A DNA stretch of 64,000 nucleotides from NCBI GenBank assembly GCA_945786985.1, contig CALZGC010000131.1:946-64945 (forward strand). The letters are read 5' to 3'. Both the position numbers and the translations under genes were made by a program. This document shows, piece after piece, positions 20,922 to 52,691 of this stretch. The stretch's first letter is position 1, and each line of letters opens with the position of its first letter. Below the pieces are notes generated by a model. It did not search any database, was not told where the DNA came from, and saw only the letters and a list, made by a program, of their open reading frames with translations. This stretch comes from an uncultured Nitrospirota bacterium (lineage in GTDB: Bacteria > CG2-30-53-67).

Positions 20922-21104
20922 CTAGCCCGGATATTGCATGAGTAAATCTATTACGAGGCCGGATCGTCTGCCACATGCGGCGTTACAGAGAATTTTCTGA
21001 CTTCGAGATATTTCAATATATCTTCAGCCAGTAAATTCTCTGCGCCTTGCCTGTGGCGCCCCTACGGCCTCTCATGACGATCACCTATGCAATATCCGGA
21101 CTAA
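20922..21104. mobile_element. MITE-like miniature inverted-repeat element, copy 1 (inverted orientation relative to copies 2-4)
   Basis: Ends CTAGCCCGGATATTGCATGAGT ... ACCTATGCAATATCCGGACTAA. The interior is the reverse complement of the conserved core of copies 3 and 4. Confidence 0.75.
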
Positions 21105-21484
21105 CCCGCGCGCTTCAGATGCCTCTCCAACTCCTCGGGGGTCGAAATCATGACATCATAGTATTCACCGAACCGCTCACAGTCGGGCGGTGCGTGCTCC
21201 CGGCATTTGTCGGACCGCCGCTCGTAGATGTCACAGAGATTCCTGCGGTTCAAATAGATGCACCGGCCGCGGGTCAGGACGTGCCACCGGTGGTTGCGAA
21301 TGAACACCTTCACTGTATCGAAATGGAGCTGCCATTTCAGCTCCTCGATGTCTTCCTTACTGCGCGGCCGTGTGATCATGACCGCCAAGTCTTTGCAGCA
21401 GATCGCCGAACACTCCAGACAAGTCTTCTCCGTCTCCTTCGCGGTTAACTTTCTGCTGGGCTTCCTCGTCTTGCGAGGACTCAT
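21101..21484 (-). CDS. Cys-rich YkgJ/UPF0153-like putative Fe-S/Zn-binding protein
   Basis: CLECSAICC...C...C pattern (CxxCxxCC). Start at MSPRKTRK preferred. The TAG stop lies inside the MITE terminus. Confidence 0.45.
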   Translation of the reverse strand: MSPRKTRKPSRKLTAKETEKTCLECSAICCKDLAVMITRPRSKEDIEELKWQLHFDTVKVFIRNHRWHVLTRGRCIYLNRRNLCDIYERRSDKCREHAPPDCERFGEYYDVMISTPEELERHLKRAG

Positions 21485-21754
21485 GGCACCCCTCCTCCTG
21501 ACCAAGTAACTAACGTCTGAACAGTCGAGCACAACATATACAAAATCATGCGGTAATGCAAACCAAAAACCAAAGACCGCCACATTCGCCGCGCGCGAGC
21601 CTGACGTCGCACCGACCTGGAGAACATTTGCCCCCGTGCGGCGGCGGTGCTATAGTTCGACCATGCGGGGCGCGCCTGTAGATCATGTGTAGATGAGGCT
21701 GGAGCCAGACGCTGTCCCATGAAGGCAATCCGAAGCGGATACCGGGAGGGTACC

Positions 21755-21973
21755 ATGTTTTTAACACATCAGCCCAGCGGCCACCTGGTGGAAGTGCTCA
21801 ATCAGGAGGATCTCTGGAACCCCTTTCGCCCGGAAGTATCGGGCCGGCTGCATTGTGGGGAAGAACGGCAAGAGCCGGAGCGCTTTGCCAAATCGGAGCT
21901 GATTTTCCCGTCCGGTGAGGCGCTGCCGCGCTGCTGGCGGGATGTCGGATACCGGCAACAGGCTTTGTGCTGA
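21755..21973 (+). CDS. Small hypothetical protein (72 aa)
   Basis: ORF with RBS GGGAGGG before the ATG (MFLTHQPSGHLVEVLNQEDLW...). No recognisable domain, so it could be spurious. Confidence 0.2.
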   Translation: MFLTHQPSGHLVEVLNQEDLWNPFRPEVSGRLHCGEERQEPERFAKSELIFPSGEALPRCWRDVGYRQQALC

Positions 21974-22126
21974 CCTCCCAGAGCCCCCTGGCCGTGACCC
22001 AAACCGTACGTCACCCCGCGCCTTCATGTGCGGGTCCCGCTGTCCCCAGCGGCCATGTTTACTTTTTCCACGCCCTATGCTACCTTTCCCGCAGATCCAC
22101 AGCCGCCAGGCCCGAGGAGAGCAAGG

Positions 22127-25100
22127 GTGAATCCCCGCAGCAAGATCAGCATCTTCCATGGAATCGGCAGGAGACTGCTGCTCTGGTTCAGCCTCTTTTT
22201 CCTGATCCCACTTCTGAGCGTCGGCACTGCAGGGTACCTGCAGAGCAAACGGGCCATCCGGCAGCATGTGTTCGACCATTTCGGGTCAATCCATACGCTG
22301 CAACTGGAGGCCCTGAAGACCTACATACGACAGCGGGAAGCCCAGCTGTTGTCCACCGTTACGGAAAACGAATTTGTATTCATCTCCACTGTGGTGTTGC
22401 AATCCTCGACGTTCTCAACGAATGACATCCAAACCGCCGCAGGCCGTCTCCGGGACTATCTGAAGGACAAGAATCAGGATCTCGGCTCGAGAAGCCTATG
22501 GATCACGGGGAGAAACGGGCTCGTCATTGCCGCTTCCGATCCCGGTTTGATCGGAAACGATCGTGCCCTATCTCCTGAGGCCATGGGGTACCAGGCCTCC
22601 CCGGCCCCGGTGTTGAGTCATTACACCGAAGTCCCCTACGGACCGGAGATCCTTGTTTCGACACCCATCGGAAGCCGGGGCGGTGAGTACCTGGGCCTGT
22701 TCACCATGTGCCTCTCGATGAAGGATATCTATCAGATCCTCCTGAACCGGACCGGCCTCGGCGCCTCCGGTGAAACCTATCTGGTCAACAAGGAGGGCTA
22801 CATGATTTCGCCCTCCCGCTTCCTGGCGAATGCCGTCCTCACGAAACAGATCCCTCTGGAGGAGATTTATGAGCTGGACCAGTCGCGGAGCGAGGAGCGC
22901 TACCCCATCAATTATCGCGGCGTCCCTGTCATTATGGCCCACACCCATCTACCGTTTTTCGAATGGACCCTGATCGCGGAGATGGAAAGCTCGGAAGCAT
23001 TCCGTGAGCTCACGGCTCAGCGTAATCGCACGCTGCTGATCATTGCGGTCCTTTTCTCAGTGCTGGTGGCCACGGCGGCCCTCATATCCCGGAACCTGAC
23101 GCAACCCATCCGGGTGCTCGTCCAGGCGGCCCGACGGGTCGGCGAAGGCGACCTCACCCCGAAGATTGAGACCCCCGCTCCCGACGAACTGGGTGAACTG
23201 GCGACGGAATTCAACCGGATGACCGATCGCCTGCGAATCTCCAAGGAGCGCATGGAGGCCTGGAACGCCACCATTCGGGCCGAGGTGGAGCGCCGGACTC
23301 AGGACCTGATCAATTCGGAGCTCAAGTTCAGAAACTTGATGGAGAAAGCCAACGATGCCATCCTGATCTTCGACGCGACCAACATGCTCTGCACGCTCGC
23401 CAACCTGGAGGCTGAGAGCCTGACCGGTTACAGCCAGGAAGAACTCCTGAATCTTCGTTTCCATGATCTCTTCCTGCCCGAAGACAGCGCCACCATTCAG
23501 GAGCATTGTCGAAAGGCCCGGATTGAAGGTTCGGCCAACCTCTACACCATGTCCCTGCGGCGCCGTGACGGACGGCACCTGTTCGTCGACGTGAGCAACA
23601 GCCTCATTGAATTTCAGAATCAGCGCTACATCAACTGCATTCTGCATGATGTGACCACCCAGAAGAACATCGCCCGGGAGCGGGAGGCCGTCTTCGAAAT
23701 TTCAGACATGGTGGCCAAGTCGTCCGACCTCGATGTCATCCTGCGCAAGTCCCTGGAGAACATTCTCTACAACCTGGAGCTGGAGGTGGGGAACGTCTTT
23801 GTCTACGAGCCCCGAACCCGGGAGCTGGTGCTGAACTGCCAGAAAGGCTTCTCCGAAACTTTCGAGAAAGACTTCTTGCGCCATGTCGTCACCGATGACG
23901 CCAACCGGATTTGCGCGCAAACCGTGAACACCCGAGAAACATCGATCCTCGACAACCCCTTTGTGGGCCCCTTGGAGAGATACCTCGAACCCGGTGTGCG
24001 CCGGGACAACCTGGAAGCCATCGTCAGCCTCCCCCTGATTGCGGAGGGAATTCTGGTAGGTGTACTACAGATCGTGACCCGACGGGAACGAGAGTTCTCG
24101 CCCAACGACCGCATTCTTCTCGAAGCCCTGGCAAATCAACTGGCCGCGGGGATCTTCCGAATCAAGCTGGAGCTGGAGAAACATGAAGGCGACCAGTTCC
24201 TGGCCGGCATTCTCACCGACTCGGTGGACGGCATCATCAGCATGGACGCAGAGAGCCGGATCACTTCCTGGAACAGGGGCGCCGCGAAAATATTTGACAT
24301 GGAAGAGGAAGAAGTGCTGGGCAAGCCTCTCCATTCCCTGTTCCGGGAGCCTCATCTGATCGACCAGGAGCGGATCCAGAAGGAACTGCGGCACAAGGGT
24401 TTTGTCAAGGATTACGAGATCAGAAACATCACCCGGGACGGCCGAGAGCTGATTCTGCAATTCTCCCAAACAGCGTTGCGAGACCAGACCGGCCGCTTCA
24501 TTGGAACCTCTGCGGTCATCCGGGATATTACCGAACAGCACCGGATGCGGACGCGCATTCAGCAGTCTGAGAAGCTCTCCAGCATCGGTCAGCTGGCCGC
24601 GGGCGTTGCTCACGAAATCGGCACCCCATTGAACATCATCTCAGGCAATGCCGAATACCTCATGATGGATATGAACGCACAGGATCCTCGGATGGAGGAG
24701 CTTTCGATCATCATCAACCAGACGGACCGGATCACCCGGCTCATACAACAGCTCATGGATTTTGCCCGAGAGACCCCGCCCCGTTGGGAGGAGACCGACA
24801 TCAATGAACTCATCGAAAACACCCTGATACTGGTGCGCCACCAGTTGAAGAAGCGTTCCATTGCACTGGCCTCGTCCCTTCACGGCTCCATGCCCAAGAT
24901 CGTGGCGGACCCCTACCAGCTCCAGCAGGTGCTGTTGAACATCATCATGAACGCCATCCAGGCCATGTCGGAGAAAGGGGCGCTCACCATCGAGACCGCT
25001 TTCGACACCGCCCGGGACGAGGTCCGGGTCACGGTCCGGGACACGGGCTCGGGGATCACCCCGGAGCACATGAAGAGCATCTTCAACCCCTTTTTCACCA

Positions 25101-25279
25101 CCAAAGAGGTCGGGCAGGGAACGGGGCTGGGGCTCTCGGTCAGTCATCGCATTATTGAAAACCACAACGGCCGCATCGAAGTAGAAAGCCATGTGGACAA
25201 AGGATCCGTCTTCACCCTCACGCTGCCCAGATGTGCCAGGGAAGTCTCACGGGAACCCCGGTTTATCCGCCGCGGTTGA
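22127..25279 (+). CDS. Multi-domain sensor histidine kinase (periplasmic Cache-like, HAMP, PAS, GAF, PAS, HisKA, HATPase)
   Basis: N-terminal TM, a large periplasmic domain and a second TM, then HAMP, PAS/GAF modules, the H-box HEIGTPLNIISGNAEYL, and N/G boxes. GTG start at 22127 has RBS GAGGAGA (the ORF-track ATG at 22028 lacks an RBS). Confidence 0.8.
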   Translation: MNPRSKISIFHGIGRRLLLWFSLFFLIPLLSVGTAGYLQSKRAIRQHVFDHFGSIHTLQLEALKTYIRQREAQLLSTVTENEFVFISTVVLQSSTFSTNDIQTAAGRLRDYLKDKNQDLGSRSLWITGRNGLVIAASDPGLIGNDRALSPEAMGYQASPAPVLSHYTEVPYGPEILVSTPIGSRGGEYLGLFTMCLSMKDIYQILLNRTGLGASGETYLVNKEGYMISPSRFLANAVLTKQIPLEEIYELDQSRSEERYPINYRGVPVIMAHTHLPFFEWTLIAEMESSEAFRELTAQRNRTLLIIAVLFSVLVATAALISRNLTQPIRVLVQAARRVGEGDLTPKIETPAPDELGELATEFNRMTDRLRISKERMEAWNATIRAEVERRTQDLINSELKFRNLMEKANDAILIFDATNMLCTLANLEAESLTGYSQEELLNLRFHDLFLPEDSATIQEHCRKARIEGSANLYTMSLRRRDGRHLFVDVSNSLIEFQNQRYINCILHDVTTQKNIAREREAVFEISDMVAKSSDLDVILRKSLENILYNLELEVGNVFVYEPRTRELVLNCQKGFSETFEKDFLRHVVTDDANRICAQTVNTRETSILDNPFVGPLERYLEPGVRRDNLEAIVSLPLIAEGILVGVLQIVTRREREFSPNDRILLEALANQLAAGIFRIKLELEKHEGDQFLAGILTDSVDGIISMDAESRITSWNRGAAKIFDMEEEEVLGKPLHSLFREPHLIDQERIQKELRHKGFVKDYEIRNITRDGRELILQFSQTALRDQTGRFIGTSAVIRDITEQHRMRTRIQQSEKLSSIGQLAAGVAHEIGTPLNIISGNAEYLMMDMNAQDPRMEELSIIINQTDRITRLIQQLMDFARETPPRWEETDINELIENTLILVRHQLKKRSIALASSLHGSMPKIVADPYQLQQVLLNIIMNAIQAMSEKGALTIETAFDTARDEVRVTVRDTGSGITPEHMKSIFNPFFTTKEVGQGTGLGLSVSHRIIENHNGRIEVESHVDKGSVFTLTLPRCAREVSREPRFIRRG

Positions 25280-25425
25280 TCTCAGGGGTGTCGGCCCGGG
25301 ATCCGGACAAGCTACGAAGGCATCCATGGCGAAACATCCCGCATGATCCGGGTGCGGTGAGAGGCTTTCGTTGACAGAGAGGCGCCCCGAGCCCCTCGGA
25401 GGCAGCCGTAAAAAGGGAGAGATTC

Positions 25426-26778
25426 ATGGGCAAATCACTTTCTGTCCTGGTTGTGGAAGACGACGACAGCATGCGAGACCTGCTGCGCAAGATTCTCACC
25501 GATGAGGGATATCGGGTGAACACTGCAGGGGACGGGACGACCGCCCTCACCATGGTCAAACAGGCCCCGGTGGACGTCGTGCTGAGCGACGTCAAGATGC
25601 CGGGGCTGGATGGATTGGAGCTTCTGAAGGCCGTGAAGAAAGTGACGCCCGGCACCTACGTGGCCATCATGACCGCCTTCGGCACCATCGATTCGGCCGT
25701 AGAAGCCATGAAGTATGGCGCCTACGACTATATTTCGAAACCGTTCAAAATCGACGAAATCCGAATTCTCATGAAGAAGATCGTCGAGCAGAAGGCCCTC
25801 CGCGAAGAGGTCGCGCATCTGCGCAAGGAAGTCAACCGGCGCTATGAGTACAGCAACATCATCGGCAAATCGAGACGAATGCAGGAGGTCTTCGACCTGC
25901 TGGCCAAGGTTGCGGAGGGGAAAAGCACCATCCTGGTTTACGGCAGGAGCGGTACCGGCAAGGAACTGGTGGCCAAGGCCATTCATTACAACAGCCCCCG
26001 AAAGAACCGGCCCTTCGTCGCCGTGAACTGCAGCGCCATTCCCGAAACCCTTCTGGAGAGCGAACTGTTCGGGCACATGAAGGGCGCCTTCACAGGCGCC
26101 ATCTCAACCCGGCACGGCCTCTTTGAAGAGGCCCACGGCGGCACCCTTTTCCTTGACGAAATCGGGGAGATTTCACCGGCCATCCAAGTCAAGCTGCTGC
26201 GGGTGCTTCAGGAGCGGAGCATCAAACCGGTGGGCGGCACAGGATCGAAGAAGATCGACATCCGACTCATCGGAGCAACCAACCAGAACCTGCAGGAAGC
26301 CGTCCGGGAAGGGCGATTCCGGGAGGACCTCTACTACCGGCTGAACGTTATTCCCATTCAACTGCCGTCCCTGAAGGAGCGGACGGACGACATCCCGCTT
26401 CTGGCCCGCCATTTTGTCGCACGATACAGCAAAGAAAACAACCGGGCAGGTATCAGCCTCTCCAGGCAAACGCTTCAGATCTTGATGAATTATCACTGGC
26501 CCGGCAACGTGCGGGAACTGGAAAACGTGATGGAGCGCTCGGTGATCCTCTGCCAGGGCAGCGAAATTACGCCGGAGGATCTACCGCCGCAGCTGATCGA
26601 GGAGAGCTTAGAGACAGCGTCGGACAAGGATCTGGCCCATCTCTCTCTCAAGGAGGTCGAGAAGGCACACATCAAACGTGTTCTGGAAAGTGTGGGCGGG
26701 CACAAAATGAAGGCCGCGGAAATACTTCAGATCGATCGCAGGACGATCTACCGGAAACTTAAAAGCTACAGTTTGTGA
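25426..26778 (+). CDS. Sigma54-dependent response regulator, NtrC family (REC + AAA+ + Fis-HTH)
   Basis: REC domain (VLVVEDDD...D), the AAA+ Walker motif GRSGTGKE, the GAFTGA sigma54-contact motif, and a C-terminal HTH. 450 aa. Confidence 0.85.
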   Translation: MGKSLSVLVVEDDDSMRDLLRKILTDEGYRVNTAGDGTTALTMVKQAPVDVVLSDVKMPGLDGLELLKAVKKVTPGTYVAIMTAFGTIDSAVEAMKYGAYDYISKPFKIDEIRILMKKIVEQKALREEVAHLRKEVNRRYEYSNIIGKSRRMQEVFDLLAKVAEGKSTILVYGRSGTGKELVAKAIHYNSPRKNRPFVAVNCSAIPETLLESELFGHMKGAFTGAISTRHGLFEEAHGGTLFLDEIGEISPAIQVKLLRVLQERSIKPVGGTGSKKIDIRLIGATNQNLQEAVREGRFREDLYYRLNVIPIQLPSLKERTDDIPLLARHFVARYSKENNRAGISLSRQTLQILMNYHWPGNVRELENVMERSVILCQGSEITPEDLPPQLIEESLETASDKDLAHLSLKEVEKAHIKRVLESVGGHKMKAAEILQIDRRTIYRKLKSYSL

Positions 26779-26791
26779 GAGAGGGGAGCTA

Positions 26792-26902
26792 CTAGCCCGG
26801 ATATTACATGAGTGATCGTCATGAAAGGGCTTAGAGGCGGCACAGGCAAGGCGCAGAAGATTTACTGCCCGTCATAGATTAACTCATGCAATATCCGGGC
26901 TA
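26792..26902. mobile_element. MITE-like element, copy 2 (shortest, ~111 bp)
   Basis: CTAGCCCGGATATTACATGAGTGATCGTCATGA...CAAGGCGCAGAAGATTT...ACTCATGCAATATCCGGGCTA. The TIRs differ at one position. Confidence 0.8.
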
Positions 26903-27229
26903 CACATCATCCAGTTCGGCAAAGCTGCGCCCCGACATCTGGTTTCGGAGTGCCTCATCGAGGTGTTCCGGCCCATCGGCCCCATGTTCAAGCGTCTCCA
27001 CCTCTTCGTGCTCCACGTTTTCCAGGAACGCGGCATCGGGCTCTTCGTTGCCGACCGACTCATCGGACACCTCATCGGGGCGCTGCCGGGCGCGCGCTTG
27101 CCGGAGCCGTTCAACCCACTGCTCGGGCGGCTCCCAGAAAGCATCCACCGGCAGCCGCTGCCCATAGGTCCTGACGGCTATTTCCAGGCGGGTCCAGAGA
27201 TAATCCGATGATGGTTGCGAGAGATCCAT
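26900..27229 (-). CDS. Small acidic hypothetical protein (109 aa)
   Basis: Highly acidic C-terminal half. Start abuts the stop of the upstream coiled-coil/TPR gene (operon). Its TAG stop is supplied by the MITE terminus. Confidence 0.4.
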   Translation of the reverse strand: MDLSQPSSDYLWTRLEIAVRTYGQRLPVDAFWEPPEQWVERLRQARARQRPDEVSDESVGNEEPDAAFLENVEHEEVETLEHGADGPEHLDEALRNQMSGRSFAELDDV

Positions 27230-27232
27230 AAG

Positions 27233-28564
27233 CTACCACACTCCCTGCTGCTGATGGTTGAGGAGTTCCAGCCCCTTCTTGGCATTCTGGTTCACGGGAT
27301 TTATCTGGAGGGCTTTGCTCCAGGCCTCGGCCGCATCCTCGTAGCGCTCCAGCTGATACAGGCTGTTGCCGTAGTTGGTGTAAGCCATCGATCGTTCCCG
27401 GCATCCGTCATCGAGGGCTTTGGAAAAGAGCTCCCGGGCCTTCTCGTAATCCATGACGGCATAATATTGTACGCCAAGATTGTGGTTGGCCTCAACTAGA
27501 TCGGGCTTCAGCTTGAGGGCCTGCTGAAACGCCTGGACGGCATGCTCCGAGCGATGCAGCTCGGTGTAGGCCAGCCCCAGATTGTTGTAGGCGTCGGCAT
27601 ATTCCGGGTCGCACTCTACGGCCTTCTCGAAGGCCCGCATGGCGGCTTCGTGGGCCCCGCGGTGAAAGTAGACCACGCCCCGGTTGTTCTGCTCCCGGGC
27701 GGCTTCCTGCCGCTGGTTGCGTGCCGCTTCGTCGACCTGCTCTTTATGGCCATCGTAGTATTCTTCGATTTTTCGCTGCCCCGAAACCAGATCGGTCAGA
27801 ACCTGTCGGGTCTCACCCATGAGTGTCTCCATTCGCTGCACGCCCTCCGCCTGCTCCGCGCTCTTTTGCGCCGCCAGCTCGCGACTATGCTGCAGCTCCT
27901 GTTGGAAATGCTCCTGCATCCCGTTGAGCTGTTCTTCAACGGCCGACCCCACAGCCGCCATTATCTGCAGGCCTTCCGACGCCCGACCGGCAAACCCCTC
28001 CTCCAACGTGGTCAGCCGCTCCAGAATCCCCTGCAGCAGAGCCTCCAGCCGCCCGCATACCGATTCGACAAGACCGATTTTCTGTTGGGATTCCTGAAGC
28101 TGGTTCGCGACGTCGCCGTGCACGCGCTGAAGCCGGTCTGTCAGGCCCTGGGTCGACTCGCCCATCAGATCGGTCCATGAATGGAATTCACCCTGAACGG
28201 TGCTGAAGCGGTCCGCAAGGTGCTGTCGAATCTCCTGAGAGAGCTGCTCAGGCAGCCGGCCGACCTGCTCTTTAAGGGTGGCCTGTCGCCGCTCGAAATC
28301 CTCCCGCTGCGCCTCCATCTTCTTGGAAACGTCTCCACGAAAGCCGTCCAGCTCCGAGCTGATCACCTGGAAGGAAGAGACAAAATCGACCTGATCCAGT
28401 ATATTGCGCATTTCATGGGTTGTCTCGGTGTTCTGGAAGAGGGAGCATTTCTTCTTTTTTCCAAAGAAGAGACTGCAGGCCTCCTCGAGGCAAGGCTGGC
28501 GCTCCCACTCCTCCAGTCCGTTTTCGGTCTTCTTGGTCTGCTTCAGCAGCAAAGGACAAATCAT
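27233..28564 (-). CDS. Coiled-coil protein with C-terminal TPR repeats
   Basis: 443 aa. Cys-containing N-terminus (CPLL...C...C...C), about 250 aa of predicted coiled coil, then 3-4 TPR units (..AYNNLGLAY.. / ..ANHNLGVQY..). Confidence 0.55.
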   Translation of the reverse strand: MICPLLLKQTKKTENGLEEWERQPCLEEACSLFFGKKKKCSLFQNTETTHEMRNILDQVDFVSSFQVISSELDGFRGDVSKKMEAQREDFERRQATLKEQVGRLPEQLSQEIRQHLADRFSTVQGEFHSWTDLMGESTQGLTDRLQRVHGDVANQLQESQQKIGLVESVCGRLEALLQGILERLTTLEEGFAGRASEGLQIMAAVGSAVEEQLNGMQEHFQQELQHSRELAAQKSAEQAEGVQRMETLMGETRQVLTDLVSGQRKIEEYYDGHKEQVDEAARNQRQEAAREQNNRGVVYFHRGAHEAAMRAFEKAVECDPEYADAYNNLGLAYTELHRSEHAVQAFQQALKLKPDLVEANHNLGVQYYAVMDYEKARELFSKALDDGCRERSMAYTNYGNSLYQLERYEDAAEAWSKALQINPVNQNAKKGLELLNHQQQGVW

Positions 28565-28606
28565 GGCCTCTCCTTAATTTTTCCAGATGCCGGACGGTAC
28601 CGGCGG

Positions 28607-37720: not shown

Positions 37721-38076
37721 CTAGCCCGGACATTGCATGAGTGATCGTCATGAGAGGCCCCAGAGGTGCTAGAGGCGCCACAAGCAAGGCGCAGAAGATT
37801 TTCTGGCTGAAGACATATTGAAATATTTAAGTGGTCCTGTTCGCAAGTATGGTGACGTATCGAGAGGGTCGTAGCGCGGTCTCCTCAAGGCGCGCGACTG
37901 AGGCGTGCCCCCTGCGGTACGACGCAGGGAGCGCCACGCAGAGGAGGGCGCACTACGGCACTCGAATGCCATCGTATTTGCGAATAGGGCCACCAGATCA
38001 ATAAATTTTCTGTAACGCCGCATGTGGCAGACTATCCGGCCTCCTAATAGATTGACTCATGCAATATTCGGGCTAA
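37721..38076. mobile_element. MITE-like element, copy 3 (longest, ~356 bp; putative full-length form)
   Basis: CTAGCCCGGACATTGCATGAGTGATCGTCATGAGAGGCCCCAGAGG...GCAAGGCGCAGAAGATTTTCTGGCTGAAG...TTCTGTAACGCCGCATGTGGCAGACTATCCGGCCTCCTAATAGATTGACTCATGCAATATTCGGGCTAA. The interior holds GC-rich palindromes (CCCTGCGgtacgaCGCAGGG). No ORF. Confidence 0.8.
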
Positions 38077-41836: not shown

Positions 41837-41855
41837 AGGAACCGGGGAACAACCG

Positions 41856-43532: not shown

Positions 43533-43570
43533 CCGTCATCCACACCCGATCAAAGAGGAGGTCATATCCC

Positions 43571-44044
43571 ATGGAAGCCACAAGAGCAATCCCCATTTTG
43601 ATTTGCGCCACCTTGCTGACGGCGGCCTTTGCTTCCTGGCTTTACGCCGGGGACACCGGCCCCGTGCCCCAACCGGGCGTAGTGACTCTGGACAGCCTGA
43701 GCGATCAGTACGAACCGGTGACCTTCGATCATGAGATGCACGTCATGGTCGCGGAGGAGTGCGCCCAATGCCACCATCAGCACGGAAGCCGGGTAACCCG
43801 GTCCTGCGGGGACTGTCACACCCTCAATTCGGAGGCCTTTAGACGCACAGCAGTCAACACGTTCACGCCTTGCCAGGACTGCCACGGCGAATACGATCCC
43901 GATACGCCGCAGATGCCGGGCCTCAAGGGAGCCTACCACCGCACCTGTTTCGCATGTCATCGCGGGATGGGGCAAGTCGGTCTGGACCCGACGGGTTGCA
44001 CCCAAATGTGCCACGCGAAGAGAGACCGGATGGCCGGAAAATGA
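43571..44044 (+). CDS. Periplasmic tetrahaem cytochrome c3-family protein
   Basis: Signal peptide, then four CxxCH (CAQCH, CGDCH, CQDCH, CFACH) plus one CxxxCH (CTQMCH). The VTFDHEMH context resembles c3 haem-1 regions. RBS AAAGAGGAGG. Confidence 0.75.
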   Translation: MEATRAIPILICATLLTAAFASWLYAGDTGPVPQPGVVTLDSLSDQYEPVTFDHEMHVMVAEECAQCHHQHGSRVTRSCGDCHTLNSEAFRRTAVNTFTPCQDCHGEYDPDTPQMPGLKGAYHRTCFACHRGMGQVGLDPTGCTQMCHAKRDRMAGK

Positions 44045-44101
44045 CGCGCAGAGTCCGCGGCCCCGCAAAGGCTGCGGTGTTTGCTGAAAGGAGGTTTCGC
44101 A

Positions 44102-45112
44102 ATGACACAGGAGAGACAAGAGAAGGGGGCCGGCGGCCTGCAGCACGGGGGGCGCCGTTCCGACAGCACGGATCAACCCCATGGACCGTGCGGCATCAAC
44201 CGCAGAGGCTTTCTCGGCGTCATGGGAGCGGTGAGCGGGTCGGCCCTGCTGGCCAGCGCCGCAGAGGTTCATGCATACAAGCAGTTCGAAGGATGGCCCG
44301 ATCGCTACGGCATGCTGTCCGACCTGACAGCCTGTGTGGGCTGCCGCAGCTGTGAACGGGCCTGCAACGAGGCCAACGGCCTGCCCAAACCGAAAAAGTC
44401 CTTTGACGACGGATCGGTTTTTGCCGAACTGCGGCGGACCGATGATAAAACTTACACCGTGGTCAATCGCTATGAAAACCCCGGGGACCCCGGGACGCCC
44501 GTCTATCGCAAGGTCCAGTGCATGCACTGCAACGAGCCGGCCTGCGCCACGGCCTGCCCTATCCATGCCTACTCCAAAACTCCCGAAGGGGCCGTCATGT
44601 ACGATCCGGACAAGTGTTTTGGTTGCCGGTACTGCATGGTGGCCTGCCCCTTCGGCATTCCGACCTATGACTACGAGAGTGCCTTTCAGCCCCGGATCTA
44701 CAAGTGCGTGCTGTGCTATGACCGCCTCAAGGTCGGCCAGATACCGGCCTGCGCCCAGGGTTGCCCGACGGAGGCCATTACCTTCGGGAAACGGTCCGAC
44801 CTGCTCCGACTCGCGCGAGAGAGGATCCTGGAACACCCGGATCGCTACATCGACCATATCTACGGAGAGCATGAAGCCGGGGGCACCAGCTGGCTCTATC
44901 TGTCGTCGGTCCCCTTCGGCCAACTCGATTTTCCCACCAACCTGCCGGACAGGCCGCTGGTGGAAGAGACCAAGGGATTTCTCTCCTCGGTGCCGGTGGT
45001 GTTTACCGTCTGGCCGGCCCTCTTCGGGATGATCTACGCGTCGGTTCGCCACCGCGATGCCTTGCAGGAAGAGCTGAAACAAGAGCAGGAAAAAGAGGAG
45101 GAGAGACAATGA
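44102..45112 (+). CDS. Tat-exported 4Fe-4S ferredoxin-type subunit (HmcB/DsrO/NrfC/PsrB-like)
   Basis: Twin-arginine motif RRGFLGVMGAVSG. Four Cys clusters (CVGCRSCERAC, CMHCNEPACATACP, CFGCRYCMVACP, CVLCYDRL..C..CP). RBS AAAGGAGG. Confidence 0.8.
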   Translation: MTQERQEKGAGGLQHGGRRSDSTDQPHGPCGINRRGFLGVMGAVSGSALLASAAEVHAYKQFEGWPDRYGMLSDLTACVGCRSCERACNEANGLPKPKKSFDDGSVFAELRRTDDKTYTVVNRYENPGDPGTPVYRKVQCMHCNEPACATACPIHAYSKTPEGAVMYDPDKCFGCRYCMVACPFGIPTYDYESAFQPRIYKCVLCYDRLKVGQIPACAQGCPTEAITFGKRSDLLRLARERILEHPDRYIDHIYGEHEAGGTSWLYLSSVPFGQLDFPTNLPDRPLVEETKGFLSSVPVVFTVWPALFGMIYASVRHRDALQEELKQEQEKEEERQ

Positions 45113-46347
45113 ACCATCATGAGACCGCTGTGAAAACTGATAACTTTCGGGCATGGTTCATGGACAAGCTGCTGATGGGGATGGACTGGCCGGACTATAT
45201 GCGACAGCTGATCACGCCGTTTAACATCATCGCCGCCATCATTCTCAGCATCGGTCTGCCGCTGATAGCCATCCGCTTCATCTACGGCCTGGCCTCGGTG
45301 ACGCACGCATCACAGGATTATCCCTGGGGGATCTTTCTCGGCTGGGGGCTCTTCGGGGGCGTGCCCCTCTCGGCCACAGGCTTTGTGTTGGCCACGGCCT
45401 ACTACATCTTCGGGTTCAAGAAGTACAAACCGCTGGTGCGGCTGGCCGTGCTCGCGGGTTTTCTGGGGTACCTCTTCGCCGTGATCTATCTGCTCTGCGA
45501 TCTGGGGCGGCCCTGGCGGATTTACTACCCCATGATCATCGGGTTCGGGACAGCCTCGGTCCTCTTTCTCGTGGCCTGGCATGTGGCCACCTATCTGACC
45601 GTGCAGTTCCTTGAGTTCAGCCCGGCCATCCTGGAGTGGCTCCAGTCCAAACGTATTCGCAAATGGGCCTTGAGTATCACCATTGCCATGACTATCGCCG
45701 GGATCATTCTCTCAACCCTGCACCAGTCGGCGCTGGGGGCCATGTTCCTTCTGGCGCCGGGGAAGATGCACCCGCTCTGGTATTCGTCCTATCTGCCGGT
45801 CCTCTTCCTCTGCTCGAGCATCTATGCGGCGCTGAGCATGGTCATTGTGGTGAGCACCCTGGCTGCCCGCTTCCTGAAAAAGGCCGCGGACCAGACGTTC
45901 CTGAGCAACCTGAATCCACTGACCTTGGGCCTGGGCAGGGGCGCCTCCCTGACGATGTACGTCTATTTCGTGCTTAAACTCATCAGCGTTGCCCACGATA
46001 ACAATTGGGCCCTGTTGGCAACGCCCTATGGCCAGTGGTTTCTCCTGGAGATCGTCGGCTTTGTGCTGCTGCCGGCCCTGATCCTGAGCCTCGGAGTCAA
46101 GACGGGCCGTGTCGGAATCGTCCGACTGGGAGCCTTCGCCGGTGCGCTCGGCATCGTGGTGAACCGTATCAACGTCTCCATGGTGGCACTCAATTGGAAC
46201 TTGCCGGACCATCTGCATCACATCGTTCCGCCCTGGCAGGAAGTCGCCATTGTCCTCGCCATCGCGACGATCCACGTTCTCGTCTTTCGCTGGATCCTGA
46301 TGCGCATGCCGGTGATTCGAGAGGCACCGGAGTACACGGACCATTAG
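45109..46347 (+). CDS. NrfD/PsrC/HmcC-family polytopic membrane quinone-interacting subunit
   Basis: 412 aa, about 10 TM helices, NrfD-like pattern. Its ATG overlaps the upstream TGA (ATGA coupling). Confidence 0.8.
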   Translation: MNHHETAVKTDNFRAWFMDKLLMGMDWPDYMRQLITPFNIIAAIILSIGLPLIAIRFIYGLASVTHASQDYPWGIFLGWGLFGGVPLSATGFVLATAYYIFGFKKYKPLVRLAVLAGFLGYLFAVIYLLCDLGRPWRIYYPMIIGFGTASVLFLVAWHVATYLTVQFLEFSPAILEWLQSKRIRKWALSITIAMTIAGIILSTLHQSALGAMFLLAPGKMHPLWYSSYLPVLFLCSSIYAALSMVIVVSTLAARFLKKAADQTFLSNLNPLTLGLGRGASLTMYVYFVLKLISVAHDNNWALLATPYGQWFLLEIVGFVLLPALILSLGVKTGRVGIVRLGAFAGALGIVVNRINVSMVALNWNLPDHLHHIVPPWQEVAIVLAIATIHVLVFRWILMRMPVIREAPEYTDH

Positions 46348-46520
46348 CAAGCCCCCAACCCGCGGCCCGGTTGTGCACCACCGATTGGGGTCATTGTGCA
46401 CCGGACCGCGGGGAACCCCGTCGCCCCAAGGGGTTGCATTGCGGCCCCCGGTGCGGCGGGAGAGAGCAGCGGGCCGATAAACGGCTCGAGACAACGTGAG
46501 CGGATCAAGGGGAGGGCGCC

Positions 46521-47966
46521 ATGCACGGACGAAAACAACTGATCGGGTGGCTCACCGCCTGCCTAATTCTCATCCAGCCTGCGATTACGCAAGCCACAGT
46601 CCCCGCAAGCCCCACGTCCGAAACCCAGAATTGCCTGGTCTGCCATGGCCGCGAACCGGCCGAAAAAGGCGGCATAGGCGAGGAACCGAGGGCGCCCTAC
46701 GTCGATATGGCCGCCCTGAAGACGTCCGCGCATCCCAACACCGCCTGCTCCGAATGCCACCGGGAGTTCGCATCGGGTAAACACCCGGACCCACGCTTTC
46801 GGGATGCACAGCAGCGGAAACTCCGGTATGCGTTGAAGTGCAGAGAATGCCATTCGGACGCGGAGATCACGCTGAAACCGATCCATGCCCGTCTGCTGGA
46901 GAACGCGCAGGAGGGGGATGCCCCCGTGTGTACCGACTGCCACGGCGCCCACAATGTCACTCCCATCTCGGGGGGGAAGGTCCTGCAGAGTGAGCGGCGT
47001 TACTGCCAGGGGTGTCATGAGCACCCCGTCACCACGGACCTCCGAAGCGGCGAGACTCTGATGCTGCAAACCGACTTAACGGTACTGGACGGGTCCGAGC
47101 ACCACATGCTCAGCTGCTCAGACTGCCATTTCGGCTTCTCCTCCCAGGAGCATCCGCAGCGCAATTTCCGAACATTGCGGGATTACGCGATCGCCTCCTC
47201 GGACAGCTGCAAGCGCTGCCACTTTGACAAACATACCCGCACGCTGGAGAGCATTCATTATGCCATCCTGAACCAAGGAAACCAGAGCGCGCCGGTCTGT
47301 ACCGACTGCCACGGCGCCCACGGGATTGCGGCCGTCGGCAAGGATCGCGCCTTTAGTGCGACACGCTGCAAGCAATGCCACGCGGCGGTTTATGAAACCT
47401 ACGCCCACAGCGTACACGGCAACGCCCTGATCAACGAGCGCAACCAGGACGTGCCGGTCTGCATCGACTGCCACCGGGCGCACGACATCGTCAATCCCCT
47501 GACCCTGGAATTTCACGACGGCATTCCCGACACTTGCGCCAACTGCCATTCCAACAAACGGATCATGGGCAAATACGGTCTTTCCACCGACGTGGTCAAG
47601 ACCTATCTCTCAGATTTCCACGGGGTCACCCTGAATTTCTACAGAAAACAGAAAGAAGCCCTTCTCAAACCCGGACGGCCCATCGCCGTCTGCACCGATT
47701 GCCACGGTACCCATGATATTGCCGGCGACGCCGATACGGATCCCCTGATTGTCAAGGGGCGCTTGCTGAAACGGTGTCAGAAGTGCCACCCCGATGCCAC
47801 AGAGAATTTCTCCGATGCCTGGCTGTCCCACTATGAGCCGACCCTGGAGAAGGCGCCGATCGTCTATCTGGTGAATCTGAGCTACAGGATTTTCCTGCCG
47901 GTGATGGTGGTGGGCCTGATCCTGCAGATACTGCTGCACATCTGGCGGTATGCGGTCAACCGCTGA
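46521..47966 (+). CDS. Multihaem cytochrome c (13 CxxCH motifs) with C-terminal membrane anchor
   Basis: Signal peptide. 13 CxxCH motifs including three CTDCHGxH repeats. C-terminal TM IFLPVMVVGLILQILLHIW. Confidence 0.85.
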   Translation: MHGRKQLIGWLTACLILIQPAITQATVPASPTSETQNCLVCHGREPAEKGGIGEEPRAPYVDMAALKTSAHPNTACSECHREFASGKHPDPRFRDAQQRKLRYALKCRECHSDAEITLKPIHARLLENAQEGDAPVCTDCHGAHNVTPISGGKVLQSERRYCQGCHEHPVTTDLRSGETLMLQTDLTVLDGSEHHMLSCSDCHFGFSSQEHPQRNFRTLRDYAIASSDSCKRCHFDKHTRTLESIHYAILNQGNQSAPVCTDCHGAHGIAAVGKDRAFSATRCKQCHAAVYETYAHSVHGNALINERNQDVPVCIDCHRAHDIVNPLTLEFHDGIPDTCANCHSNKRIMGKYGLSTDVVKTYLSDFHGVTLNFYRKQKEALLKPGRPIAVCTDCHGTHDIAGDADTDPLIVKGRLLKRCQKCHPDATENFSDAWLSHYEPTLEKAPIVYLVNLSYRIFLPVMVVGLILQILLHIWRYAVNR

Positions 47967-48003
47967 CCGCGCTCCTCAAGCGCGTGCAGCAACGGAGGCT
48001 ACT

Positions 48004-48762
48004 ATGAAGAACCGCAAAATAAACGGTGGAATGATCCGCCGCTTCAGCCCCCTGCGACTGGCCGAGCACTGGGTGAACGCAGGCGCCATCGCCGTTCTCG
48101 TGCTGACCGGGCTCGCACAGAAGTTCCACACCCTGGAGGCGTCCCAGTGGTTTGTGCTGCACCTGGGCGGCATCGATACGGTCCGCCTCATCCACCACAC
48201 GGCAGGCGTCGTGGTGATCCTGCTGACCCTGCAGCATATCTTGGCTACCTCCTTCCTGGTCGTCTTGCGAAAGGGGCAGCCCGGCATGTTGATCAACAAG
48301 AAGGATGTGGCCGATACGCTGGAAAACCTGCGGTACTACTTTGGACTGCGGCAGAGCCCGGCCCTCTGCGACCGATACGATTACAAGCAGAAGTTTGAGT
48401 ACTGGACGATCCTGACGGGCCAGATCCTGATGACCGTCTCCGGCCTCATTCTCTGGTTTCCGACGGTTGCGGCTCGCTTCCTGCCGGGCGAATTCATTCC
48501 GGCCGCCAAGGCGCTGCACACCAATGAAGCCCTGCTCATTTTCCTCCTCATCGCCGTCTGGCATATCTACAATGCCATCTTCAGCCCCGACGTCTTCCCC
48601 CTGGACACGAGCATCTTCACCGGTCGCATCTCACGGGAGCGGATGGTCCACGAACACCCCCTGGAGTTGGGAAGAATGGAGGGAATCCCTCTGGAGGCCG
48701 TTCTGAAAGAAAGACGGGAGGAGATGCACCTTCTGGACGCGGAGAGCCCCCTGCTGCACTAA
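48004..48762 (+). CDS. Di-haem cytochrome b membrane subunit (FdnI / NiFe-hydrogenase CybH-like)
   Basis: Four TM helices with conserved His (..AEHWVNAG.., ..LIHHTAG.., ..ALHTNEA.., ..WHIYN..). RBS ACGGAGG. Confidence 0.65.
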   Translation: MKNRKINGGMIRRFSPLRLAEHWVNAGAIAVLVLTGLAQKFHTLEASQWFVLHLGGIDTVRLIHHTAGVVVILLTLQHILATSFLVVLRKGQPGMLINKKDVADTLENLRYYFGLRQSPALCDRYDYKQKFEYWTILTGQILMTVSGLILWFPTVAARFLPGEFIPAAKALHTNEALLIFLLIAVWHIYNAIFSPDVFPLDTSIFTGRISRERMVHEHPLELGRMEGIPLEAVLKERREEMHLLDAESPLLH

Positions 48763-48820
48763 CCGGCCAAAACGCGCGCACGTTTCCGCTCTTTGGCCCC
48801 CGCGTAATGCACAATTCGAC

Positions 48821-49291
48821 TCAGGCGGCCTGCACGGAGAACTTCAGGATCTTCGGCTGCACGAGCCGTTCGAAATCCCTGTAGGACACCCGGATCAGCT
48901 CGATGTGCGACCCCGCGTTGAAGGCGATCTTCTCGTCCTGTGTGAGGCTCTCCGCAACATAGACGCCCAGGCCGTAAAGGTTGCCGAAGGGGGGCATGGC
49001 CCCGATATCGCACCCCGGGAACAAGTCCTGAAATTCCTGCTCTCCGGCCAGTTTGGCCTCCGCAACGCCGGCCGCTTCCTTCAGGAGACGGAAATCGACC
49101 TTGTAAGATGCCGGAAGCACGGTCATGGCGAGCTTGCCGTCGAGCTTCACCATCACGGTCTTCGCCAATTCCCGTCCCGGGATGTGGGCGGCGGCGGCAA
49201 TTTCCTGGGTGGTGAAGGCCTCCGAATGATGAATGACTTCATAGGAAACCCGTTCCCGGTCCAGATAGTCCTTTAGTTTTTTTGCGGGCAT
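48821..49291 (-). CDS. YbaK/ProX-like aminoacyl-tRNA deacylase family protein
   Basis: 156 aa; size and overall sequence pattern consistent with the YbaK/EbsC domain. Tentative. Confidence 0.45.
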   Translation of the reverse strand: MPAKKLKDYLDRERVSYEVIHHSEAFTTQEIAAAAHIPGRELAKTVMVKLDGKLAMTVLPASYKVDFRLLKEAAGVAEAKLAGEQEFQDLFPGCDIGAMPPFGNLYGLGVYVAESLTQDEKIAFNAGSHIELIRVSYRDFERLVQPKILKFSVQAA

Positions 49292-49560
49292 CTCAATTCC
49301 CTCCTTCGCTCACGTCATGCGGCTTCGCACCGCAGCGTTCGTGAACGATTCCCCTGTTTTTGGCGCCGTACCTCGTACCGTCTAGATTAATAGCACGGAT
49401 CCAGCACTTGTCAAGAAGCCGCAAGCGTCCGGCCTTCCAGTCCTTCGGAACGTCTCGCACTCCCCCTTGACATCCCGAATCGGGTGATTATCTTTTGGAC
49501 AGTAGGCTTTAGGATGCGGCCCTAGCCCATCCGCCCAATCAACGACAGGAGGTAAGCACC

Positions 49561-50001
49561 ATGGCCCTTTTGACCCAATTTGATCCGATTGTCAACTTGC
49601 AGTCCCTGAACCGCTGGCTCGACGGGGAGTTCCCCGGTTTTCGTGCATACACGGGGACTTCCACTGAAGAAACCTGGCGTCCCGCGGTGGACATTCTGGA
49701 GGATGTAGATGCCTTCATCATTGAAATCGAAATTCCCGGCATTGCCGAAACAAGCATCGATATGAAAATCGAGAAACAGGTTTTGACATTGACGGGTGCG
49801 CGAGAAACCGATGAGCAGAACCCAACTCGCAAAACGATCAGGAGGGAACGCGCACAGGGAAACTTCGTGCGCTCATTCCAGCTGCCTGACACGGTCGACA
49901 CGGAGAAGATTACCGCGAAGCTGAAGCAGGGGGTGCTGCGAATAGAGCTTCTCAAGAAAGAAGAGACCAAACCGAGGACCATCAAGGTCGAAATGAAATA
50001 A
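49561..50001 (+). CDS. Hsp20/alpha-crystallin small heat-shock protein
   Basis: WRPAVDILEDVDAFIIEIEIPG...GVLRIELLK alpha-crystallin domain. RBS CAGGAGGTAAG. Candidate TTGACA-N16-TATCTT promoter about 70 nt upstream. Confidence 0.85.
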   Translation: MALLTQFDPIVNLQSLNRWLDGEFPGFRAYTGTSTEETWRPAVDILEDVDAFIIEIEIPGIAETSIDMKIEKQVLTLTGARETDEQNPTRKTIRRERAQGNFVRSFQLPDTVDTEKITAKLKQGVLRIELLKKEETKPRTIKVEMK

Positions 50002-50185
50002 CCGCCTCGGTTGACAACCCAAGCCAGGATTCCTCAACGGGGGAGGCGACCCACGTGTCCCTCCCCCGCCTTCCTCCATCCATCGGAAGATCTGTCCCAC
50101 GCCAGCGTCGCACCGAAAAAAAGCCTGTTGCCACAATGGGATACCCCATAGTAAAATAGACCCAGTTCAACACACCGACTGAGAA

Positions 50186-52147
50186 ATGCGAACATCCAAA
50201 TTTCCCGTGGCAGCGCATGCCATGCAAGCAGAGGGCTCCAAGCACGTGATCAGTCGCATTATTGATTTCATTACCTTTGTGGGGCTGCCCATCCGGAAGA
50301 AGTTTCTGCTCTTTTCCATCGGCGTCCTTTTCTGGTTCCTGGTCATCTTCGTGATGAGCGTGGCCACGCTGTACGACATCAACCGCCGCTCGACCAACAT
50401 CGTCGACTCCATCATTCCCCATGACCGCATCGCCCAGAAGACCACCCGAAAGCTGCAGAGTCTCCACGTGGATGCCGTGGAAATCACGGACGCCTCTAAC
50501 CTGGAGTTCGTAACGCAGCGCACAATGGTCTCAAAGTCCAGGCTGAAAGATATCGATACCTTTCTAGCCGCCTTCGCCCGCGGGGGCCGAGTCCATGACT
50601 ACTCCCGGGACACCGATGAGCTCATTGAAAGTTTCGAGGTCGTCCCGGTCACAGAATACGCAGAGGGCGCCAAGTATGTGCAGGAATTGTCAGGGCTGAT
50701 CGAGACACTGGGCCTCGCCTTCGACGAACTGGCCCGCGTCAAGGGGGAGCTGCTCCAAGGCAGGGAACCGGAGGCCGTTGCGTTGCCGGGGGTCTATCAG
50801 AAGTTGCAAAAGGATCTGGCCGCGGCGCGGACCCTGTCTAACGGCTTCTCCGCCAAGTCGGCCTATCTCTACCAAGTGCAGTCGCAGAAGATCAAAGACG
50901 CTGTGCACTGTACCTCGTCGGCCGTCGTCGTCGTGCTCGTGATCGCCACCTCCCTGCTGGCACTTTTTACCATCTGGATTTCCCGTTCACTGGCCAACCC
51001 CATCAACTCCATGATCAAGCAAATCCATGCCCTCGGTGAGGGCACAGCCGATTTGTCCCAGAAGATCACCGTTTCCACGAAAGACGAAATCGGAAAGCTC
51101 TCATCCGAGTTCAATGGACTCATGGAGTCGATTCACGGAATGGCCACTTTCAAGAAGGTGATCGAGGAAGACGATACCCTGGATGATGTCTACCATCGCC
51201 TGGGGCGGGAATTTCGTAATGTCGTCGGGTTGGAGGAGTTCATCATTTTTGAAGTCGAAAAGAACGCCAAGAAAATGAAGGCGGCCTACCCGTTCCTGCT
51301 GCCCCATGAGGAGATCCACTGTCACGAGGACATTCTGGTGAACTCCGATCTCTGCCGAGCCAGGAAGACGGGACACCAAGTCTCCTCCCTGAGCTATCCG
51401 GGCATGTGCAGACAGTTTCGCGCGGACACCGGGAAGGAACACATCTGCCTTCCCATGATCGTTGGAGGCAGCACGGGCGGCGTGGTCCAATTCCTCTTCG
51501 ATAAGAACGGGCGGGCGACGGTGCATACAGACGCCATCGACCGGAAAGTTTTTGCGGCAGCCCAATACATCCAGGAATCCCTTTCGGTGATCGAGGCCAA
51601 GAAGCTCATGAACACCCTGAGAGAGTCGGCCATCAAGGACTCCCTGACGGGGCTTTATAACCGACGTTTTCTGCAGGACTATACGGAAACCCTCGTCGCG
51701 GGAGCCTTGCGGCGCGGGAAAGCCATCGGCCTGATCATGTGCGACCTCGATTACTTCAAACAGGTCAACGACACCTACGGCCATGATGTGGGTGACGCCA
51801 TCCTTCGAGAAACGGCCGCGACCCTGACCGAGTGCGTCCGCAAGACGGATTTCGTGCTGCGCTTCGGAGGCGAGGAGTTTCTGGTTCTGCTCGTCGATGT
51901 GGAAGAGGGAGAAGCGCTCACAATCGCCGAGAAGATCCGCACGACCTTGGCCGCCAAAAAACTCAAGGTTCCCGACGGCACCCTAACGAAAACCATCAGC
52001 CTCGGCGTCAGCGAGTTCCCCACCGACACCGAGGGCATCTGGCAGGCCATCAAGTACGCCGACGTGGCCCTCTACGAGGCGAAGCACCGCGGCAGGAACC
52101 TGACGGTTCGATTCGCATCCGAGATGTGGACCGAGGCAAAGTTCTAG
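50186..52147 (+). CDS. GGDEF diguanylate cyclase with N-terminal TM/HAMP and GAF-like sensor region
   Basis: RFGGEEF active site with an RxxD I-site upstream. Two TM helices and a HAMP. 653 aa. Confidence 0.8.
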   Translation: MRTSKFPVAAHAMQAEGSKHVISRIIDFITFVGLPIRKKFLLFSIGVLFWFLVIFVMSVATLYDINRRSTNIVDSIIPHDRIAQKTTRKLQSLHVDAVEITDASNLEFVTQRTMVSKSRLKDIDTFLAAFARGGRVHDYSRDTDELIESFEVVPVTEYAEGAKYVQELSGLIETLGLAFDELARVKGELLQGREPEAVALPGVYQKLQKDLAAARTLSNGFSAKSAYLYQVQSQKIKDAVHCTSSAVVVVLVIATSLLALFTIWISRSLANPINSMIKQIHALGEGTADLSQKITVSTKDEIGKLSSEFNGLMESIHGMATFKKVIEEDDTLDDVYHRLGREFRNVVGLEEFIIFEVEKNAKKMKAAYPFLLPHEEIHCHEDILVNSDLCRARKTGHQVSSLSYPGMCRQFRADTGKEHICLPMIVGGSTGGVVQFLFDKNGRATVHTDAIDRKVFAAAQYIQESLSVIEAKKLMNTLRESAIKDSLTGLYNRRFLQDYTETLVAGALRRGKAIGLIMCDLDYFKQVNDTYGHDVGDAILRETAATLTECVRKTDFVLRFGGEEFLVLLVDVEEGEALTIAEKIRTTLAAKKLKVPDGTLTKTISLGVSEFPTDTEGIWQAIKYADVALYEAKHRGRNLTVRFASEMWTEAKF

Positions 52148-52500
52148 ACCCCCGCCGTTTCTTCTCAAAATCGCACCAACCGTGGACACTCCGGCAACCC
52201 CTGTTTTCCGATCCTCCCGGAGTCCCTTCGAAAGAACTCTCCGATCAGGCGGGCCGATACGCAATCGGTCACGCAGCACGCAGCCTGGCACCCGGGGATA
52301 GGTTGTGAAAAAAGTGTGAAAAAAGCTTCCCAAGGTGCCGCATGTCCCGATTCCCCGGGCGCCGCCGCCTCCCACTGGAAACGCTTTTCATCGAGGAAAG
52401 GCACGACCCGCCGCAGTCTCACCCCGTCAAGTGCCAAAAAGGGCATAACCGACACTCTATCGCTTGACAATCGAGCGCCAATTGAATAGCATACGGCGTG

Positions 52501-52691
52501 CTAACCTGGATATTGCATGAGTCATCGTCGTGAGAGGCCCCCCAGATCCTGGAGGCGCCACAGTCAAGGCGCAGAAGATTGACTGGCTGAAGGCCTATTG
52601 AAGTATTTCGAAGTCAGTAAATCTTCTGTAACGCCACATGGAGCAGACTATCCCGCCCCGCAATTGATTGCCTCATGCAATGTACGGGCTA
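52501..52691. mobile_element. MITE-like element, copy 4 (~191 bp, internal-deletion derivative of copy 3)
   Basis: CTAACCTGGATATTGCATGAGTCATCGTCGTGAGAGGCCCC...GTCAAGGCGCAGAAGATTGACTGGCTGAAGG...TTCTGTAACGCCACATGGAGCAGACTATCC...CCTCATGCAATGTACGGGCTA. Confidence 0.8.

Follow-up and report, generated by a model that had tools for sequence, protein, structure and literature searches.

The 64,000-nucleotide stretch of DNA analysed here (the window; contig CALZGC010000131.1 of assembly GCA_945786985.1, from an uncultured Nitrospirota bacterium) carries four short repeats that form a family of miniature inverted-repeat transposable elements (MITEs). All four are intergenic, and the genes that flank them encode a cytochrome c, a CxxCxxCC protein, a sigma-54 response regulator, a TPR protein, a DeoC-type aldolase, a histidine kinase, a GGDEF protein and an acetyl-CoA synthetase. 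The four elements, together with a further repeat that is nested in the third of them, are located as follows.

20922..21104, minus strand: MITE copy 1, canonical 181-bp form, inverted; 197 bits with nhmmer over model positions 1-181; flanked by CTAG (20922-20925) and CTAA (21101-21104), the element proper being 20926-21100.
26792..26903, plus strand: MITE copy 2, an internal-deletion derivative that retains model positions 1-77 and 148-181; flanked by CTAG (26792-26795) and CTAC (26900-26903).
37721..38076, plus strand: MITE copy 3, composite, made up of both arms of the 181-bp unit and a palindrome nested at their apex; flanked by CTAG (37721-37724) and CTAA (38073-38076).
37829..37997, plus strand: nested GC-rich palindromic repeat of 169 bp at the apex of copy 3, a second repeat family.
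52501..52692, plus strand: MITE copy 4, the 181-bp unit with a 9-bp insertion, giving 190 bp; 172 bits with nhmmer; flanked by CTAA (52501-52504) and CTAT (52689-52692).

Measured from TAG to CTA, copies 1 to 4 are 181, 110, 354 and 190 bp long. A preliminary description of the window had placed four elements at these positions, and its lengths agree with ours to within the flanking bases. It had further reported shared inverted ends, a shared core and the reversed orientation of copy 1, all of which were recovered both by a repeat finder and by a four-way alignment. The inverted ends comprise about 21 bp, six of the eight being within 3 mismatches of the consensus and the other two more diverged, and in the window the 22-mer end CTAGCCCGGATATTGCATGAGT is matched 6 times with no more than 3 mismatches, whereas shuffled sequences predict 0.01 matches. 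An nhmmer profile made from 181-bp copies and run on the 64-kb window detects exactly four copies and no others. The likeness among the copies ends at the element edges, and the genes around them are unrelated to one another as judged by Pfam; thus the four repeats are not a segmental duplication, an alternative that the preliminary description had itself raised, and the similarity is confined to discrete units bounded by terminal inverted repeats (TIRs). None of the four elements (110-354 bp) has a coding capacity of its own, and the inspection of open reading frames (ORFs) and genes, in which only spurious overlapping ORFs appear, bears out the earlier statement that the elements encode no protein and sit between genes.

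The basic unit of the family is 181 bp, which is the commonest length of the complete copies found in related genomes. The nested lengths of the copies had been attributed to internal deletions of a longer master copy, and this stands for the 110-bp copy, which is indeed an internal deletion, but not for the 354-bp copy, which consists of the 181-bp unit with the nested 169-bp repeat and is not the master.

Ends shared with IS1380-type elements

The 18-mer CCCGGAYATTGCATGAGT, taken from the ends, was scanned over one genome per species, leading to at least 82 loci in Nitrospirota, Nitrospinota, several gammaproteobacterial orders, Brocadiaceae, Desulfosudaceae and Kiritimatiellia among others (individual loci outside the window are given below by their L numbers). 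Among the matches listed, two inverted ends lie 70-460 bp apart, the size of a MITE, at 20 loci, and 1588-1626 bp apart at 8 loci (seven at 1617-1626 and one at 1588). Each of these long elements contains a single ORF of 437-461 amino acids. The three ORFs that were scanned all match the NCBIfam model NF033539, the IS1380 transposase, with E values from 1e-121 to 3e-127 and scores of 406-425 bits against a cut-off of 180, this being the only NCBIfam match of the partner transposases, and they score 553-571 bits with Pfam PF13701; in the remaining long elements the same transposase is detected by tblastn. Nine more full-length elements of 1577-1592 bp were obtained from metagenomes by scanning for the end and then for a transposase motif, and their bodies are unrelated to that of the MITE. 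The preliminary description had suggested a search for an autonomous partner with the same TIRs, naming the families IS630/Tc1, IS5 and PIF/Harbinger; such partners do exist in other phyla, although they belong to IS1380 and to none of the families named.

One of these elements, in an Arenicellales genome, is present in at least six copies that are 99.8-100% identical. Since the identity among these near-identical copies stops at the ends, the element is active now or was so until recently. Its five complete copies have CTAG on both sides in all five cases. A link between full-length and miniature forms is provided by a different MITE bounded by these ends (L029, 282 bp, from Azotimanducaceae), in which the left end of a full-length insertion sequence (IS) is retained over about 105-113 bp, thus documenting the origin of MITEs by internal deletion for this IS1380 clade.

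The closest named relatives, found by tblastn on annotated plasmids, are ISPosp7 and ISPa33, with 56% transposase identity, and ISMaq4, with 50%; no plasmid match was obtained with the 356-bp MITE copy or with 20 kb of window sequence. ISPa33, ISPosp7 and ISMaq4 are IS1380-family ISs carried on Pseudomonas, Polaromonas and Marinobacter plasmids, and it is with the full-length elements having exact MITE ends that their transposases are 50-56% identical. They have the same architecture as the MITEs, namely YTAR, CCCGGAT...ATCCGGG and YTAR with a 4-bp target duplication, and the end of ISPosp7 reads CTAG followed by CCTGAATATTTCAC. The inner part of the end differs, being CCCGGATTTCTCATGA in ISPa33 and CCCGGATATTGCATGAGT in the MITE. 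Furthermore, the named ISs are autonomous, measure about 1.56-1.62 kb and carry a transposase gene, whereas the MITEs of the window are non-coding, span 110-354 bp and have a body without detectable similarity to the ISs sampled. The ends of the MITEs are most probably those of the ISPa33/ISPosp7-like clade of the IS1380 family.

A separate observation concerns the full-length IS1380-type elements themselves, which have a hairpin directly 5' of the transposase start, e.g. GGCAAGGCG...CGCCTTGCC-ATG. It was seen at L018 3711-3780 and at the left ends of L082, L008, L005 and L085, and its stem sequence varies among elements with the pairing retained. This retention of the pairing suggests that translation of the transposase may be controlled through the hairpin.

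Target duplication and empty sites

The termini of the elements read 5'-CC..GG-3' (CCCGG...CCGGG) and are flanked by YTAR, mostly CTAG and sometimes TTAA. In a logo of 119 ends the four bases outside CCCGG are Y (C 63%, T 29%), T (84%), A (94%) and R (G 76%, A 22%), and no base preference is seen beyond these four positions. Near-identical copies of ISPa33 at seven independent sites are flanked by CTAA/CTAA (three sites), CTAG/CTAG (two), TTAG/CTAG (one) and CTAC/CTAA (one), the 4-bp flanks being identical on both sides at 5 of the 7 sites and the fourth base depending on the site. As this fourth base varies from site to site and yet matches on both sides, the target duplication is of 4 bp and the element proper is CCCGG...CCGGG. 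Target-site duplications, which the preliminary description had put forward as a check, are thus present, and they consist of 4 bp at YTAR. Duplications of 4 bp and 5'-CC..GG-3' termini are reported to be common to IS1380 and piggyBac (PMC10045372), and the target duplication of IS1247 is 5 bp (PMC3281130). A duplication of TA only, as in IS630, was suggested by the old copies, in which the inner flank bases match better, and was ruled out by the fourth base in ISPa33.

Young or intact IS copies have at times non-identical flanks, both of the YTAR type, e.g. TTAG/CTAG or CTAA/CTAG, as seen in L096/L100 (Shewanella plasmids), L083, L091, L082 and L005. One may speculate, by analogy with piggyBac, that such imperfect young flanks come from carry-over of a donor flank.

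A contig of a related Nitrospirota genome (CAMYMF010000001.1) is collinear with positions 14062-39841 of the window, about 26 kb, at 82-85% nucleotide identity. None of the five insertions in the collinear stretch is shared. Copies 1, 2 and 3 are all absent from the relative, copy 3 being absent from the syntenic locus L065, and the relative has two copies of its own, one full (L093 18272-18452) and one degenerate and partial (7297-7406). The orthologous site of copy 1 in L093 is empty and reads atgCTATccc. That of copy 2 is also empty, cccggCTAGacct, with a single CTAG at L093 12686-12689 that overlaps the stop codon of the same 109-amino-acid gene, and the window sequence at the site of the relative's own insertion is atgtcaCTTTgagggc. 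The three empty sites therefore have CTAT, CTAG and CTTT, against two CTAN at the filled sites. Since one CTAG-like tetranucleotide stands at the empty sites and two at the filled ones, TAG...CTA is not internal to an element that inserts without duplication, a possibility that is ruled out by these three sites.

The two related genomes hold at least 26 loci among the matches listed, and two unbiased stretches give a density of about one copy per 10-16 kb; the hundreds of copies per genome that the preliminary description had put forward would be an extrapolation. Many matches of the end CCCGGAYATTGCATGAGT lie less than 100 bp from a contig end (e.g. L034, L054, L079, L062 and L053); the repeats appear to break metagenome assemblies, so that copy numbers from such assemblies will be too low. 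At the empty site of copy 2 the sequence at L093 12676-12689, ATCCCGGCTAG, matches the MITE end with its flank, ATCCGGGCTAG, at 10 of 11 bases, which could reflect chance, a preference for end-like targets or the trace of an older insertion.

We consider it highly probable that the four repeats are an IS1380-derived MITE family, mobilised in trans, which inserts at YTAR with a 4-bp duplication. The preliminary description had already proposed a non-autonomous, TIR-bounded MITE family, and this proposal is upheld by the inverted ends, the target duplication, the many copies in two related genomes and the differing insertions. The repeat structure, the sharing of ends with elements that carry a transposase, the target duplication and the variable occupancy among relatives are direct observations, from which we infer the mobilisation in trans in the source genome and any effects on the neighbouring genes. 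In the mechanism that we propose, a full-length element elsewhere in the genome, present now or formerly, would supply the transposase in trans. This transposase would bind the ends of about 18-21 bp, 5'-CCCGGATATTGCATGAGT..., and the element would be inserted at a YTAR tetranucleotide, usually CTAG, with the duplication of this tetranucleotide on both sides. CTAG is a rare target in the genome and often contains a TAG stop, and insertions disrupting genes would be removed by selection, so that the surviving copies would be intergenic and would often adjoin a stop codon.

Several points weigh against this proposal. An IS1380 transposase was found by tblastn with three transposase queries neither in the window nor in the fetched Nitrospirota loci, the partners with the same ends described above being those of other phyla. 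Among the ISs sampled, no full-length element shares the MITE body beyond about 21-25 bp, and on the sequences sampled both the direct parent and present mobility in the source genome are unproven. Likewise, a metagenome scan for the subterminal sequence of the MITE followed by a transposase motif gave 0 matches, and the MITE body was not detected with a profile of IS left ends. The subterminal part of the MITE includes GATCGTCATGAGAGG and AAATCTATTACGAGG. All four copies in the window have imperfect flanking repeats, with the mismatch at the fourth base, and copies of the family differ from one another by about 10-25%, which may mean that the family is old or inactive. Finally, a plain MITE would not require the compensatory changes in the hairpin described below, which hint at an additional constraint.

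Hairpin and placement among genes

Each element is imperfectly palindromic over its whole length and folds as a single hairpin, the RNA fold having an energy of -92.4 kcal/mol (z -11.6) for copy 1 and of -188.6 kcal/mol (z -12.9) for copy 3. In an alignment of 10 full-length copies, standard pairs fill 94.6% of the pair cells and two-sided changes occur in 10 of 65 pairs, compared with 5.7 +/- 1.5 in shuffles and 0-2 in slid controls; 7 of these 10 pairs lie outside the terminal repeats. The pairing of the hairpin is thus maintained through compensatory changes, which may be due to a requirement of transposition, to correction from arm to arm or to a use by the host. Any read-through transcript of an element would be predicted to form a long hairpin.

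The GC-rich palindrome that had been noticed within the largest copy is real according to folding. The composite form of copy 3 is also found in L046 and L052, at 81-85% identity, and there the inserts of the nested palindrome (L046 105-271; L052 387-554, in another genome) are about 90% identical and lie at the same position. A diverged stand-alone relative with identical ends is located at L039 4069-4282. The family of this nested repeat measures about 170-215 bp, has the ends GTGGYCC...GGRCCAC and includes one stand-alone copy; neither the nested repeat nor the stand-alone relative has a match in Rfam at E up to 5. A different, perfect GC-rich palindrome, GGGTGCCAGGCAGGCCTGCCTGGCACCC, substitutes part of the MITE core in L056 (about 4875-4915), L011 and L033 (related genome), and it looks like another small nested repeat.

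As regards the placement of the elements, the window contains 22 CTAG where 232 would be expected, which corresponds to a ratio of 0.09 or an approximately 11-fold depletion. The corresponding ratios over the whole window are about 0.4 for GTAC, TTAA and TATA, and 2.2 for GATC. Three of the 22 CTAG are MITE flanks, one is inside copy 3 and 18 are free; of the latter, 3 coincide with stop codons, 3 lie between genes and the others fall within ORFs, as crudely called. Targeting of safe sites as the sole cause of the intergenic location is only partly supported, with 11 of the 18 free CTAG inside genes. Since most free CTAG are within ORFs, the target alone is insufficient to explain the location, and insertions that disrupt genes must also have been selected against.

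At least 8 of about 28 copies, counting the window and related loci, adjoin a gene whose TAG stop falls in the flanking tetranucleotide. Copies 1 and 2 are of this kind, their CTA serving as the TAG stop of a neighbouring gene on the minus strand; for copy 1 this is the CTA at 21101-21103, the stop of the CxxCxxCC gene 21101-21583. In both cases the differing fourth base of the flank is the wobble position of the last sense codon of that gene. Copy 2 lies 13 nt past the point where the sigma-54 response regulator gene stops. Copy 4 has a sigma-70-like site, TTGACA-17-TAGCAT, just upstream at 52464-52492, and the acetyl-CoA synthetase gene starts with an in-frame ATG at 52739, 47 bp downstream of the element. 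Copy 4 is therefore probably located within the 5' untranslated region (UTR) of this gene and transcribed in its leader. An orientation bias, as expected from a strand-specific RNA function, was sought and none was found, with about 4 sense and 6 antisense copies relative to the adjoining gene by crude gene calls.

These features bear on the alternative that survives best, according to which the repeats are structured elements serving the host. The hairpin would have been selected as an RNA stabiliser, a processing site, a terminator or a small RNA, and transposition would account only for the original spread. We regard this as unlikely. The very stable hairpin, with the z values of -11.6 and -12.9, is in its favour, and so are the probable location of copy 4 in a 5' UTR and that of copies 1 and 2 directly past stop codons. 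Against it, Rfam 15 has no match at the elements at the gathering score, nor any over copy 3 with E values of up to 5, and simple scans detect neither an intrinsic terminator nor a sigma-70 promoter inside the elements. The pairing of 94.6% and the two-sided changes in 10 of 65 pairs, above the controls, agree with selection on the structure, but the covariation could also stem from master-copy lineages or from correction between arms. Furthermore, the copies show no orientation bias (about 4 sense and 6 antisense) and the occupancy is not conserved, 0 of 5 sites being common to the relatives. More generally, a host-level or structural role for the hairpin seems to us rather improbable.

An extension of the IS1380-derived reading, which we entertain only tentatively, holds that an IS1380-type clade with a near-invariant 18-21-bp end is spread across many phyla, that through its rare palindromic target CTAG/YTAR it is the bacterial equivalent of piggyBac with TTAA, that it has repeatedly spawned MITEs with unrelated bodies in different lineages and that the hairpin of the Nitrospirota MITE is actively maintained. 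If this were true, the hairpin structure itself would be required, either for transposition or for a use by the host, e.g. as a 3'-end or UTR hairpin at TAG stops.

Two further features of the window were observed apart from the MITEs. A full-length cobalamin riboswitch (Rfam RF00174, 108.8 bits) lies at 61010-61195 on the plus strand, upstream of the ORF 61331-63352, and a related copy is found at L042 4475-4618 with 85% identity. Four spaced repeats at 46920-47714 on the plus strand encode CxxCH haem-binding motifs within the ORF 46521-47966, whose product is a probable multihaem cytochrome c.

Relation to known elements

The alternative next in standing concerns the parent family. IS630/Tc1-mariner elements duplicate TA, IS630 itself preferring CTAG, and in the IS5 group the duplication is of 4 bp at YTAR. 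MITEs derived from one of these families with a similar target would explain why TA is the invariant core of the flank with CTAG as the favoured context, and why the outer flank bases match less than the inner ones in older copies. However, the full-length elements found with these ends are all of the IS1380 type, with none of IS630 or IS5, the ISPa33 copies show a 4-bp duplication and not the 2-bp TA, and the CC..GG termini are as described for IS1380 (PMC10045372); we hold an origin from IS630/Tc1-mariner or the IS5 group to be very improbable. Least credible of all are REP/BIME/ERIC palindromes spread by RAYT or by recombination, or leftovers of segmental duplication, which have only a general resemblance in being intergenic, palindromic and multi-copy, and which are contradicted by the target duplication in the comparisons of empty and filled sites, by discrete inverted ends identical to IS1380-type ends and by unrelated flanking genes with similarity confined to the elements. 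The REP/ERIC-like option of the preliminary description is not needed given these ends and the target duplication, both of which set the elements apart from REP/BIME, no search for a RAYT gene having been made.

As IS1380-derived MITEs, the four repeats join a well-populated class. Bacterial MITEs include Correia/NEMIS in Neisseria, the IS630-derived RUP in Streptococcus pneumoniae, ERIC/IRU in enterobacteria, the cyanobacterial MITEs and the Tn3-derived TIMEs. With bacterial MITEs in general the elements have in common that they are small, non-coding, intergenic and multi-copy and have inverted ends as well as a target duplication; such MITEs are mobilised in trans and many of them fold as hairpins when transcribed, as is generally known and described (PMC4133298, PMC2779907). 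They differ from other bacterial MITEs in the parent, IS1380, and in the target, which is a rare palindromic tetranucleotide and not TA or an AT-rich site. A further parallel is piggyBac, the eukaryotic relative of IS1380, which has likewise CC..GG termini and duplicates a 4-bp palindromic target (TTAA, compared with YTAR). Unlike the IS1380 clade, piggyBac is eukaryotic, has a much larger transposase and is strict for TTAA. Full-text literature searches returned no report of IS1380-derived MITEs, nor of a CTAG target for IS1380. Thus, although MITEs as a class are well known, those from the IS1380 family do not seem to have been reported.

The elements are of an ordinary kind, and the gain is one of annotation and comparison and not of concept. 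A previously unannotated repeat of uncultured Nitrospirota genomes, which creates spurious ORFs and shifts the calls of starts and stops, is given a name and a mechanism, at the strength expressed above. IS1380 would be added to the transposon families known to yield MITEs. Furthermore, a CTAG/YTAR target is documented for one clade of IS1380, which steers insertions to stop codons and parallels the TTAA target of piggyBac.

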